A stretch of 29,653 bases of DNA from positions 1 to 29,653 of the forward strand of contig JAGWDQ010000109.1 in the NCBI GenBank assembly GCA_018260615.1. The letters run 5' to 3'. The notes beneath the pieces were generated by a model. That model saw only the letters and a list, made by a program, of their open reading frames with translations, did no database searches and had not been told where the DNA came from. The stretch comes from Candidatus Altarchaeum sp. Lineage in GTDB: Archaea > Altiarchaeota > Altiarchaeia > Altiarchaeales > Altiarchaeaceae. The position numbers and the translations under genes are program-made. Numbering within the stretch: the first letter of the stretch is position 1; each line of letters starts with the position of its first letter. Below are positions 21,137 to 25,476 of this stretch, one piece after another.

Positions 21137-21695
21137 TCATTTTCCTGCAAAAATATTGATTCTTCTGAATGTCTCAAAACATTTTCCTGTTTCATTTTGA
21201 GTTCTGTCAACCATCATTTTAATTACCTGAACGCGAAAATTTTTCCTGTCTTTCTCATCATCAATCTGTTTTGAAAAAGGCACAAGTGACGGCTGGTCTA
21301 TCCACCGTATCATTTCGTCGGCATTATCAAAGTATCTGTCCGCATTTTCATCCCAAATCTCTGCATCCTTAAAATTTGAGTCCTTTGCCATTGATTTATA
21401 TTCTTCAATTGCTGGCATATACCATGGCCATTGAAATTTCTCAAAATATTTCTGAAATTTATCCCGTCTGATTACCTCTTTAACAACGGCAAAAAAATTT
21501 GAGCAGTTGCCGTCACCTGCAAAATTGAATCTGATTATTCCGCCGGATTTCAAAGCAGTATGGCAATTTGCAAGTAATTTTGTTTCCATACTACATAGTA
21601 CGATTTAAACAGCCCAAATCAAGTATGGACTCATTTCCGTGAAGTTTTGATTCCAACCCGGATATTATTTTATTGCCCCATTCCTTTTGATGTTT
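21137..21695 (-). pseudogene. Fragmented class I SAM-dependent methyltransferase
   Basis: N-terminal fragment KHQKEWGNKIISGLESKLHGNESILDLGC (~21609-21695) and C-terminal fragment LLANCHTALKSGGIIRFNFAGDGNC...RRINIFAGK. The middle (after DLGC) is missing and replaced by a 30-bp repeat. Confidence 0.75.
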
Positions 21696-21895: not shown

Positions 21896-23413
21896 TTAAA
21901 GCTTTAATTTATTTTTAATTTCTTCATGTCTGCTGTGAAGTGTTGAAATCGTAATTCCTACCAAATACAATAGTTCTTTCTTTGGAAATTCCTCCCCGAT
22001 CTGTTCACATGCCAAACTTATAATTGCTCCCGCAACCCCCGAAGGACCTCTACCTGCAGTAATTCCATATTTCTTTGCTTCATTAAGTATTTTCTGAGCT
22101 TCTTCTTCGGCGGTATTTGAAATCCCAATTTTTGAAGCATAGAGAGCAATATAATCTTCTACATTTGTTCTTGGTGGTTTCAGATTCATGGACTTAAGTA
22201 TATGTTTATAACTTCTGCCGATTTCTTTTTTTGATATTCCGCTTTTTTCTCCGATTTCTTCTAATGTTCTCGGTTCTCCCTTCTTTCTGGTCACATAACA
22301 TATTATTGCACCAATTATACTTTCTATACTTCTTCCTTTAACAAAGCCCTTATCTACCGCCTGTCTGTATAAGTGAGCACAGTCCTCCTTTATTGTTTCT
22401 CCGATGTCTAACAAACTGCACATTCTGTCAAGTTCCGGAAGAGCTATTGATAAATTTCTACCAACGCTGTCGCTCATTCTGCTCCTTGTTTGTAGTCGTC
22501 TCATCCTATACAGTTCAACTTTTCTTTCCACTTCAAATCCGCCACCTTTTGCATCTCTGTCGTAGCGGTCTATTTCCGTTGTTAAACCCTTGCTGACCTT
22601 TGCATCTTTTATTGCACCGCTTGCCCTTGATCTTTTTTCTTTTTGTCCGCTGTCAAATGAACGCCATTCCGCACCTGTATCTATCATCTCGGAGTCAATA
22701 ATCGTTCCGCAATTTGAGCACACAATCTCGCCTGTCTTAACATCAGGAAAAGCACTTTCATAAAATATTTGTATATTGTTGTTCGCTTTTTCGGTAAAGC
22801 CAACCGAAAAAATTTTTTCCTCTTCTAAATTCGGAGAATTTTTAAGTGTAAAAACACATTTTAAATAAATTAGAAGGATTGCTCTGTTTTCCTTTTTAAC
22901 AAGTATTTCGCTTCCTTCATTGCTTATTTCCGGCTCTTTCAGGTCCTTCAGCAAAGTCACTTTATCAATAATATTTTTATCTAAATTTTTCTTGGAATCT
23001 AAAATTTCCCATAACATTGTTTGCTTCTCTTTATCCTGTGAAAATTCTTCAAGTGTAAATAGATATTCGTCTTTATCATATATTTTTGTTTTGCTGTTTT
23101 CAAATCGCACTTCTCCCAGAGGATAAATAAATGCATCTCCTCCGCTTTGACAGCCGTATCTTTTATCTATCTTTATATCACTTTTTAAAGTTAAATTTCC
23201 AATTATCCCGTTTTTTCCCTTAATTTCAATCGTTCCATCCTCATAGACATATTTTGCCTCTTCTAAATTTGCGCTTAAATTTCCCCTCTTACTTCCCAAG
23301 TCGTTAAGCATACAGGTATTTTTTAAATACCTTTTTATTGCATTTTGCTGTGCTTTTTCCTTATCTATCTGGTCAAATACGAACAATATTCCTTTACATT
23401 CCGGACACCTCAT
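21896..23413 (-). CDS. tfb: Transcription initiation factor IIB with a ~210-aa insertion in the zinc ribbon
   Basis: CPEC...GEIVCSNCG, EWRSFD B-reader, GLTTEID, RNLSIALPEL, KGRSIE, PRTLEEI and GRGPSG cyclin repeats. Confidence 0.93.
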   Translation of the reverse strand: MRCPECKGILFVFDQIDKEKAQQNAIKRYLKNTCMLNDLGSKRGNLSANLEEAKYVYEDGTIEIKGKNGIIGNLTLKSDIKIDKRYGCQSGGDAFIYPLGEVRFENSKTKIYDKDEYLFTLEEFSQDKEKQTMLWEILDSKKNLDKNIIDKVTLLKDLKEPEISNEGSEILVKKENRAILLIYLKCVFTLKNSPNLEEEKIFSVGFTEKANNNIQIFYESAFPDVKTGEIVCSNCGTIIDSEMIDTGAEWRSFDSGQKEKRSRASGAIKDAKVSKGLTTEIDRYDRDAKGGGFEVERKVELYRMRRLQTRSRMSDSVGRNLSIALPELDRMCSLLDIGETIKEDCAHLYRQAVDKGFVKGRSIESIIGAIICYVTRKKGEPRTLEEIGEKSGISKKEIGRSYKHILKSMNLKPPRTNVEDYIALYASKIGISNTAEEEAQKILNEAKKYGITAGRGPSGVAGAIISLACEQIGEEFPKKELLYLVGITISTLHSRHEEIKNKLKL

Positions 23414-23476
23414 TTTCCTTTTAATCTTTTAAATTTCTTTATTTATTTTACTTTTTTGATTAATTGTATAAATTTT

Positions 23477-23528
23477 AAAATGAAATAATAAAATGAAATA
23501 ATAAAATGAAATAATAAAATGAAATAAT
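23477..23528. repeat. 13-bp tandem repeat x4 upstream of tfb
   Basis: aaaatgaaataat repeated perfectly four times. Confidence 0.9.
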
Positions 23529-23676
23529 AAAATAATTTTTTAAAATATTTTAATCTTTAAAAAATAAGTAATTTTTAAAATAAATAATAAAAATAAATAA
23601 TTTAAAAATGAAATATTAATGAAACAATAAATAAAATAAAAAACAACAATTAAAATTTAAATAAATTTAAACATAA

Positions 23677-25010
23677 GGTAGTGATAAAGATGTAATGTTC
23701 GTTTAAATTGTAAAATTATCTCGTTGTTGTCCGGAGATTTTCAAATATATATGTTCTATGGATACTAATTATTAACACTACCTTTGTAAAATGTTAAGAA
23801 CATTCAAATACAGGATATATCCAAACAAGAAACAGCAGGAACTATTAGAAAAACACTTCGGTTGTGTTAGATTTATTTACAACTTTGCTCTTGACAAGAA
23901 AATAAAAGCGTATGAAACATCAAAAACAACACTTACAAGATTTGATTTACAAGTTATCGTCAAAGACATGAAACAAGATAGCAAATATTATTGGTTAAAT
24001 GAAGTAAATTCACAATCATTACAAGCAGTATTAAAACATTTAGACGGTGCTTTCACAAAATTTTTCAGAGAAAAGAAATGTTTTCCAAAATTTAAATCAA
24101 AGAAAAATAATTTCCATTCATTTGAATGTCCACAGCATGTTAAAATAGAAAACAATAAACTCATAATTCCAAAGTTCCTTGAGGGCTTAAGAATAAGATT
24201 AAGCAGAATGTTCACCGGTAAAATCAAGACAACAACAATATCAAAAACACCAACAGGAAAATATTATGCTTCTGTTTTAGTGGAAACAGATGATGTTTTA
24301 CCTTTAAAACCAGAAATAAAAGAAGAAACAACCGTAGGAATTGATTTAGGAATTAAATCATTTGTCACAATAAGTGATGGAACTAAAATAGAGAGTTTAA
24401 AACCTCTCAAAAACTCATTAGACAAATTAAAGGTATTACAAAAAAGGTTAAGCAGAAAGGTTAAAGAAAGCAATAACAGGAAGAAAGCAAGATTAAAAGT
24501 TGCTAAAATTCATGAGAAAATAACAGAGCAAAGAAATGATTATATTAACAAATTAACATGCAGAATGGTACACGACAGCCAAGTGGATACAATCTGTGTG
24601 GAGAATTTAAATGTCCAAGGAATGGTATGTAACCACCATTTAGCACAGGCAATAAGTGATGCAAGCTGGAACGAGTTTAATCAGCAGTTAGAATACAAAT
24701 GCAATTGGTATGGAAAAAATTATGTCAAAATTGGAAGATTTGATGCAAGCAGCAAAATATGTTCTGTGTGCGGAAACATAAACAAAGAACTTACACTTGC
24801 AGACAGAGAATGGACTTGTACCAATTGTAAAACACATCACGACAGAGATACAAATGCAGCAATAAATATGAAGAAATTTGGGTTGCAGAAACAAAATTTA
24901 ATCAATTATTCAGGGCAGGGTATGCCCGTAGGGCTTGGGGAGTTGTTGTCAGTAGACAGAGCCATGAACCAAGAATGATAAGAGGTTTCATTACCTATTT
25001 ATCACTACCA
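23677..25010 (+). mobile_element. 1334-bp non-autonomous TIR element with 8-bp TSD carrying tnpB
   Basis: GGTAGTGATAAA (23677-23688) / TTTATCACTACC (24999-25010), extendable imperfectly to ~21 bp (..GTAATG); AAACATAA at 23669-23676 and 25011-25018. Confidence 0.85.
23791..24978 (+). CDS. tnpB: RNA-guided endonuclease TnpB
   Basis: N-terminal FKYRIYP...FGCVRFIYN, RuvC triad GIDLG (D185), VENL (E271), DRDTNAA (D353) and zinc finger CSVCG...CTNC. Confidence 0.96.
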   Translation: MLRTFKYRIYPNKKQQELLEKHFGCVRFIYNFALDKKIKAYETSKTTLTRFDLQVIVKDMKQDSKYYWLNEVNSQSLQAVLKHLDGAFTKFFREKKCFPKFKSKKNNFHSFECPQHVKIENNKLIIPKFLEGLRIRLSRMFTGKIKTTTISKTPTGKYYASVLVETDDVLPLKPEIKEETTVGIDLGIKSFVTISDGTKIESLKPLKNSLDKLKVLQKRLSRKVKESNNRKKARLKVAKIHEKITEQRNDYINKLTCRMVHDSQVDTICVENLNVQGMVCNHHLAQAISDASWNEFNQQLEYKCNWYGKNYVKIGRFDASSKICSVCGNINKELTLADREWTCTNCKTHHDRDTNAAINMKKFGLQKQNLINYSGQGMPVGLGELLSVDRAMNQE

Positions 25011-25030
25011 AACATAAATAATGGGAACTT
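24880..25030 (+). ncRNA. Putative omegaRNA (scaffold over the tnpB 3' end and right TIR; guide from the flank)
   Basis: GC-richer structured tail gggcagggtatgccc...gaaccaagaa and terminal hairpin tgataagaggt-ttcatt-acctattttatca. Boundaries are inferred from TnpB biology. Confidence 0.5.
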
Positions 25031-25476
25031 TTGAAGATATTTTTATAAAATACGAATTAATTGGCTTACTGCTCGGATGTTTTGCATCATCTTCCATATT
25101 GCCGATTCCATCGGAACCGTTAATAATCATTAGCACAAAATTTCAACCCGTAATTTATGTGTTTGTTTTTGCACTTATCGGCTCTGTAGGCGGTGCAATG
25201 CTAAACTATGCAATCGGAATCAAAGGAATTAAATGGCTCGTAAAGAGGGAGAGTGAAAAAGAAAAGAAATTAGAAATGTGGTTCAGTAAATACGGAATAT
25301 TTGTACTATTGGCAGTTCCATGGATTCCGTTCGTTGGAGACCTGTTTACAATTGTCGCAGGTTCTTTGAAAATGGATTTAAAGAAATTTATATTATGGAT
25401 TACGATTGGCAAGGCAATAAAAATTTCTGTTGTTATTTATGCCGCAATGGCGGGAATAAAATTTTTCGGAATGTGA
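25021..25476 (+). CDS. YqaA/DedA (SNARE-associated, VTT domain) membrane protein
   Basis: SILPIPSEP, GSVGGAMLNYAIG, WF.KYG...LL..PWIPFVGD and GKAIK motifs. Confidence 0.88.
   Translation: MGTFEDIFIKYELIGLLLGCFASSSILPIPSEPLIIISTKFQPVIYVFVFALIGSVGGAMLNYAIGIKGIKWLVKRESEKEKKLEMWFSKYGIFVLLAVPWIPFVGDLFTIVAGSLKMDLKKFILWITIGKAIKISVVIYAAMAGIKFFGM

Follow-up and report, generated by a model that had tools for sequence, protein, structure and literature searches.

The gene considered here is tfb, located at positions 21896–23413 on the minus strand of a stretch of 29,653 nucleotides from Candidatus Altarchaeum sp. (contig JAGWDQ010000109.1; the whole stretch is referred to below as the window), and its closest described counterparts are canonical archaeal TFB and eukaryotic TFIIB. 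It shares with these all four domains in the same order as well as the four zinc-ligand cysteines, and differs from them in its ribbon, which is discontinuous, with 225 residues instead of 14–15 between the two zinc knuckles and a domain of 210 amino acids nested in between. A comparable arrangement is found in Trm112-type zinc-knuckle domains, whose zinc-binding module is divided in two by a separate domain nested within it. The likeness would consist in N- and C-terminal CxxC halves joined around zinc with the intervening domain looped out, whereas the host protein, the inserted fold and the function all differ, and no homology is implied. Sulfolobus TFB3, a truncated paralog, works alongside a normal TFB. 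It exemplifies lineage-specific remodelling of the TFB N-terminus for specialised roles (PMC6101591, PMC6101594), and extra paralogs are present in this case too; in the window genome, however, the TFB closest to the canonical form is itself expanded, not truncated.

The ribbon sits on the dock of Rpb1/Rpo1, where it is essential for the recruitment of RNA polymerase and blocks the RNA exit pore, and it is predicted to clash with RNA of 12–13 nt at promoter escape (PMC6212726, PMC7111264). In eukaryotes, the Mediator subunit Med18 touches both the B-ribbon and the dock (PMC7111264), the ribbon face at the dock being a regulatory contact point at which a fused domain could act comparably in cis. 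Mediator, however, is a separate eukaryotic complex, and no sequence or fold similarity to it was found for the insert. Large in-frame intervening sequences are also known from the archaeal tfb genes of Methanocaldococcus jannaschii and M. vulcanius (PMC6801210), but those are splicing inteins of the Hint fold with a homing-endonuclease domain, whereas the insert in the window shows no splicing hallmark and no Hint or homing-endonuclease signal, and evolves as a retained domain. In the literature searched, no description was found of a TFB-family or TFIIB-family protein whose B-ribbon harbours a nested domain, and on Altiarchaeales TFBs nothing beyond one passing mention.

Anatomy of the split zinc ribbon

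The open reading frame (ORF) comprises 505 codons and a stop codon, as read from the ORF list and its translation, and its product is a genuine TFB, having the cyclin repeats, the four zinc ligands and the B-reader/B-linker of the TFB/TFIIB family. Two TFIIB cyclin repeats (PF00382; 100.3 bits versus a cut-off of 23.6) were found by Pfam downstream of the ribbon and were also recovered at the C-terminus in a whole-genome family scan, and the NCBIfam model NF001658 aligned with its positions 25–308 of 312 to residues 222–505 (280.7 bits). The Pfam ribbon model Zn_Ribbon_TF (PF08271) matched with positions 14–43 only, at residues 224–253 (38.1 bits, cut-off 29). The first knuckle, which is missing from this match, is the MRCPEC at the extreme N-terminus, with CPEC at residues 3–6, and the second, CSNC, occupies residues 232–235, confirming the split ribbon that had been proposed from the DNA alone. 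The protein belongs to the TFB family by its domains, yet with 225 residues between the knuckles it breaks the otherwise invariant contiguity of the ribbon. The Trm112p model of Pfam weakly covers residues 2–237 as a single stretch (E 0.056, below the cut-off).

All parts of the gene are read from the minus strand. The N-terminal half of the ribbon, residues 1–14 (23372–23413), consists of the CPEC knuckle (23396–23407) followed by strand β1 (ILFVFD). The insert, residues 15–224 (22742–23371), is distinguished by the knuckle spacing and by the ratio of nonsynonymous to synonymous substitutions (dN/dS), and is nested in the β1–β2 hairpin of the ribbon. The C-terminal half, residues 225–253 (22655–22741), corresponds to positions 14–43 of PF08271 and contains VKTGEIVC, the CSNC knuckle (22709–22720) and strand β3. 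It is followed by the B-reader and B-linker, residues 254–315 (22469–22654), which are near-invariant within the clade according to alignments and dN/dS, and by the B-core, residues 316–505 (21899–22468), with its two cyclin-like repeats (PF00382). Excision of residues 15–224 restores the canonical register CPxC-x8-D / x3-GEIVC-xxCG, and the boundaries given in the original prediction proved to be exact. Comparison of the registers places D14 and V225 on either side of the insert, at the turn between β1 and β2 (GEIVC).

The premise that the knuckles of archaeal TFB normally lie about 15 residues apart was borne out in related proteins. Among 121 TFB-family proteins, the spacing is 14–15 in 97 and 209–239 in 13, with no value between these ranges; it is exactly 15 in all eight canonical TFBs checked from the sister families, while the genus's other three species have 220–227. 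The other long TFBs among the 121 owe their length to terminal extensions around a normal ribbon. Two expanded Altiarchaeales-related TFBs, P0068 (538 amino acids) and P0089 (462 amino acids), have normal ribbons: the C-terminus of P0068 appears by eye to hold a second cyclin-like repeat pair, its precomputed Pfam list including PF02984, Cyclin_C, and P0089 carries a C-terminal extension of about 150 amino acids.

Within the insert, the AlphaFold2 model of residues 1–254, built from 8 sequences (predicted local distance difference test, pLDDT, 76.4; predicted template modelling score, pTM, 0.73), predicts the same pattern twice, namely two helices followed by strands of about 5, 6, 14, 11, 6 and 5 residues. 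The full-length model was poorer (pLDDT 66.2). Module 1, residues ~18–120 (23054–23362), is outlined by this secondary structure, by self-similarity at an offset of 108 residues and by conservation, and module 2, residues ~121–224 (22742–23053), by the repetition of the helix–helix–six-strand pattern and by the same self-similarity. The isoelectric point of module 2 is more acidic than that of module 1 (4.9 versus 8.5), and module 1 has a KIDKRYG loop that is conserved only within the subgroup of the window. In a profile self-comparison, which is independent of the structure model, the sole positive diagonal lay at offset 108 (+21.7 versus −40.3 ± 14.9 over 111 offsets; z = 4.15), with a score of −11 for the next-best offset. 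Offset 108 also maximises the self-match of the predicted secondary structure, and alignment of the two halves with hhalign returned the same register, which was not significant alone; neither was BLASTP between the halves. The proposal of two degenerate modules is thus upheld by the diagonal together with the matching secondary-structure repeat, and because self-comparison, secondary-structure match and hhalign register agree on offset 108, the insert is taken to be an ancient tandem duplication of a unit of ~105–108 amino acids.

The insert is an orphan in the collections searched. Nothing consistent was found for its family in Pfam, NCBIfam, PHROGs, PDB sequences or the ESM Atlas, and fold comparisons yielded a best E of 0.058 with a template modelling score of at most 0.15 (Foldseek against the PDB), a best Z of 4.8, below the noise guide of the tool (VIA-align against 48,161 chains), and an unconvincing best E of 0.01 (BFVD). 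With the insert alone as query, phmmer recovered from 1.84 billion representatives a further TFB with the insert, plus two weak matches to repeat proteins. A MORN_2-like homology to P0003, a MORN-variant repeat protein that itself barely passes MORN_2, was suggested by phmmer (E 8.2e-6, summed over 5 repeated stretches) but not supported by hhalign (probability 0.2%); the match to P0004, a Cu/Zn superoxide dismutase repeat protein, looks spurious. A module common to the insert and the neighbouring rhomboid protein was rejected (BLASTP E 2.5, hhalign probability 0.24%). Among proteins of 112–371 amino acids, the insert profile detected no copy that stands alone or is fused to something else, and no further copies were found in the window's own genome or, in a scan of 61 genomes of the phylum, in the 57 others. 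A known fold was not recognised for the insert; given the shallow alignment, a new fold is a candidate only.

Recurrence, selection and origin of the insertion

The layout of 500–519 amino acids recurs in 10 clusters (90% identity) from JGI, NCBI and Logan assemblies, and three further insert-bearing clusters, P0005, P0015 and P0016, bring the total to 13. All four species-representative genomes of the genus carry the split-ribbon TFB, with 82–87% identity over residues 1–505. Alignment with related TFBs, suggested at the outset as a check of presence and absence, thus found the insert throughout the genus and found none in the canonical TFBs of the sister families. Residues C3, C6, C232 and C235 do not vary in any of 12 homologs, the most diverged P0015 and P0016 included; G236 is invariant too, and G8 and F11 vary little or not at all across all insert-bearing homologs. 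Several of these homologs also have in common a flanking VTT-domain gene upstream.

In a codon alignment of the four species, dN/dS is 0.25–0.40 for the insert versus 0.07–0.15 for the cyclin core, and 0.00–0.08 for residues 223–310, which cover the second ribbon half, the B-reader and the B-linker. Indel lengths are without exception multiples of three, and stop codons are absent. From these codon patterns, the insert is evidently under purifying selection and translated as part of the TFB. Its length, its two-module architecture and its hydrophobic core positions are kept, and truncated or decayed variants were seen in none of the 13 clusters. Between a lineage-specific domain and a removable element, both of which had been considered originally, translation, conservation over the 13 clusters and the invariant zinc ligands favour the former. 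Clade-wide, the conservation of the insert is restricted to scattered glycine, aromatic and aliphatic positions; for this reason the insert does not look like an enzyme, and a conserved fold with a changeable surface would suit the pattern better than an active site.

A search with the TFB core alone retrieved three proteins, P0014, P0015 and P0016, that bear on the age of the insertion. P0015 (499 amino acids, Candidatus Altarchaeaceae archaeon) and P0016 (506 amino acids) have a core identity of 62–64% and a split ribbon, with the knuckles CPYC...CTNC and CPVC...CMGC, respectively. The insert of P0015 is homologous to that of the window (hhalign 95.4%, E 1.8e-8, 183 columns, 28% identity), and the diverged split-ribbon forms align with the window TFB from end to end at 49% identity over the whole protein. 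P0014 (303 amino acids) has a core identity of 65%, a contiguous ribbon and the distinctive B-reader of the clade. In the maximum-likelihood tree, calculated from the second knuckle to the C-terminus and midpoint-rooted, the insert-bearing TFBs form one clade (96/92), with P0014 as its sister within a 100/100 group apart from 18 canonical Altiarchaeales TFBs. The orthology of P0014 is taken from this tree, the gene neighbourhoods differing among the three sub-lineages. Since the insert-bearing TFBs are monophyletic with the insert-free P0014 as sister, the simplest reading is a single old insertion after the split from the P0014 lineage, with fast divergence of the insert thereafter.

Role of the split-ribbon TFB and competing explanations

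The B-reader, B-linker and core of the window TFB (residues 221–503) are 50–53% identical to those of the canonical TFBs of the sister families, the insert-bearing clade nests in trees among canonical Altiarchaeales TFBs, and the genus's four genomes (65–87% complete) yielded no close TFB that is uninterrupted. For these reasons the insert-bearing TFB is read as the main TFB of the lineage. The overall explanation favoured here, with a probability of about 0.62, is that this main TFB has retained a single old two-module insert in its ribbon, which would serve as an accessory module at the dock of the RNA polymerase. In this reading, a domain of ~24 kDa was inserted once, long ago, at the tip of the β1–β2 hairpin, and the split-ribbon TFB is translated in one piece. 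Both halves of the ribbon, each with its invariant pair of cysteines, would be expected to rejoin around zinc, leaving the insert to protrude from the hairpin as a domain of its own; since both halves and the zinc ligands are conserved, a re-formed ribbon of this kind seems the most likely arrangement. Because the ribbon docks there, the insert is presumably placed beside the dock and the RNA exit channel, where it may offer a contact surface for a partner or for nucleic acid, or modulate recruitment or promoter escape. More tentative is the specific proposal that the insert is a cis-fused regulatory or adaptor module at the dock and RNA exit that gates recruitment or promoter escape and has a previously undescribed fold, its ligand being, for example, the nascent RNA, DNA upstream or a partner specific to the lineage; the term regulatory is in this respect our inference.

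Several observations weigh against the favoured explanation. Structure prediction, which had been put forward as a way to see whether the ribbon still forms, answered in part: in the N-terminal model, ribbon strands are predicted on either side of the insert (residues 9–12, then 230–232 and 238–239), but the pLDDT of the ribbon is only ~67–71 in this model and <50 in the full-length one, and the alignment behind the modelling is shallow, with 8–10 sequences. The NCBIfam TFIIB score of 280.7 bits is below the curated cut-off of that model (384). The dock region Rpb1_2 of the polymerase shows no lineage-specific indel (165 amino acids versus 164–166), so that, as far as indels were compared, co-adaptation of the polymerase is not evident. 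Furthermore, the insert evolves 3–5 times faster than does the core, a pace also compatible with a decoration that is simply tolerated, and a TFB with an intact ribbon that could carry the general function is present in the genus.

This intact-ribbon protein, which bears on the recommended check for an uninterrupted tfb elsewhere, is divergent. It is encoded on contig C98 of the window's own genome, G000 (L003, 1456–2550, minus strand) and has 364 amino acids, with an N-terminal extension of ~50 amino acids, a complete contiguous Zn_Ribbon_TF domain (profile 1–43 of 43, E 1.2e-14) and two TFIIB repeats. By virtue of these domains the C98-type TFB might be the general initiation factor, in which case the insert-bearing TFB would be specialised, alternative or inhibitory, its bulky ribbon changing or blocking the normal docking to the polymerase. 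The orthologs of the C98-type TFB (65–81% identity) were found only in the insert-carrying genus, and the co-occurrence of two novelties in one genus agrees with a division of labour. Such a division is nevertheless unlikely: the branch of the C98-type TFB is very long (3.39 changes per column) and its identity to canonical TFBs, as to any other TFB, is only ~30%, whereas in the insert-bearing TFB the B-reader, B-linker and core remain near-invariant, and this TFB is the closest relative of the canonical TFBs of the sister families.

Further TFB paralogs lack the ribbon altogether. Two are encoded by G000 contig C101 (L002, 1195–2400, minus strand, 401 amino acids; L004, 1453–2604, minus strand, 383 amino acids); they are without ribbon, B-reader and B-linker and have instead N-terminal helical repeats of ~30 amino acids (LLxLAEKD...VA-type), which Pfam does not call as HEAT. 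Their cores, with 85% and 64% identity to that of the window TFB, nest inside the insert-TFB clade. P0018 and P0103 are similar to these paralogs and may share one 62-kb contig of another assembly. In a related genome, a TFB-like match with six stops (3 TGA, 3 TAA; G010:C1:196655-197656) is possibly a tfb pseudogene.

A less probable explanation than the division of labour is that the insert is a tolerated passenger, i.e. a near-neutral, self-folding decoration at a permissive surface loop that cannot be cleanly deleted and has no function of its own. The divergence of the insert is what might be expected of a passenger, as its identity between sub-lineages is 28% compared with 62–64% for the core and its dN/dS exceeds that of the core; no polar motif is conserved across the whole clade, and no homolog of known role was found. 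These features have to be set against a dN/dS that is still well below 1, and against the length, two-module architecture and hydrophobic core that persist across deep divergence with no decayed variant in the 13 clusters. Moreover, a mass of 24 kDa at the RNA exit and dock would hardly be without effect.

It is very improbable that the insert is removed before the protein acts, be it through an atypical or degenerate intein, through proteolysis or at the RNA level, for instance as a bulge–helix–bulge intron. Inteins are known in Methanocaldococcus TFB genes (PMC6801210), and the Hint fold is pseudo-two-fold symmetric, as is the window insert, but the insert bears none of the splicing hallmarks, in agreement with its original description as a non-intein insertion. 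In every homolog it begins with Q, E, K or D, and never with C, S or T; it ends in ...FPD (...AFPD) or, in the diverged forms, in ...KDE (...TKDE), without His-Asn; and the position after it varies (V, A, T, I, F, E or R) and holds no conserved nucleophile. The intein, Hint and homing-endonuclease families of Pfam gave no match in any of eight members at E <= 5, no Hint or homing-endonuclease signature appeared in the NCBIfam or PDB sequence searches, and no intein was among the Foldseek or VIA-align matches, which were obtained with a query model of intermediate confidence. A known Hint or homing-endonuclease domain, which would have told against the original reading, was not encountered in these searches, and with no nucleophiles, terminal His-Asn or Hint signal, removal at the protein level is left with no supporting feature. 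At the RNA level, in a crude motif test, the duplex between the junctions (−23.4 kcal/mol) was no better than that of shuffles (−20.3 ± 3.5), and neither bulge–helix–bulge-like pairing nor target-site-like direct repeats were found at the junctions beyond a chance 6-mer. An intron would predict neutral evolution and frame-breaking changes, the opposite of the purifying selection and exclusively in-frame indels observed. The bulge–helix–bulge intron was accordingly rejected, and RNA-level removal in general is strongly argued against because the insert is not evolving neutrally.

An assembly chimera, which had been named beforehand as an artefact to be feared, or a mis-called ORF can practically be dismissed, since many assemblies from different sources show this architecture independently of one another, several of them with orthologous flanks (the VTT-domain gene upstream).

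Genomic surroundings and meaning for the lineage

Upstream of tfb, a perfect 13-nt tandem repeat (TAAAATGAAATAA × 4.5) is located at 23476–23533, 63–120 nt from the start codon, within a very AT-rich spacer in which further degenerate repeats extend to ~23670. In the relatives L021 and L022, the VTT-domain gene lies ~100 nt upstream of tfb in divergent orientation. In the window (23669–25018 and 25021–25476), a TnpB-carrying element is situated between the VTT-domain gene and tfb, so that the shared promoter region is split. Directly downstream of tfb lies an ORF of 150 amino acids (21137–21589, minus strand), which had no Pfam match at E <= 0.001.

The B-ribbon is among the most length-invariant modules of transcription initiation, archaeal and eukaryotic, and in every other TFB examined its knuckles are 14–15 residues apart. 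The weight of the present finding is limited by the fact that the organisms are uncultured and that the role of the insert is conjectured from its position. The retention of a 24-kDa ribbon insert through deep divergence nevertheless implies either that the hairpin tip is permissive and outward-facing or that a new layer of control over recruitment or escape has been added. The protein may be considered as a natural test case for the bulk that is tolerated at the dock and RNA exit, and its insert as a candidate new fold. If the insert indeed is a regulatory module, it would represent in archaea, as part of TFB itself, what the contacts of co-activators with the B-ribbon are in eukaryotes. Taken together, the insert-bearing TFB, the genus-specific TFB with an intact ribbon and the ribbon-less paralogs suggest an unusually active remodelling of basal factors in one lineage of the Altiarchaeales.

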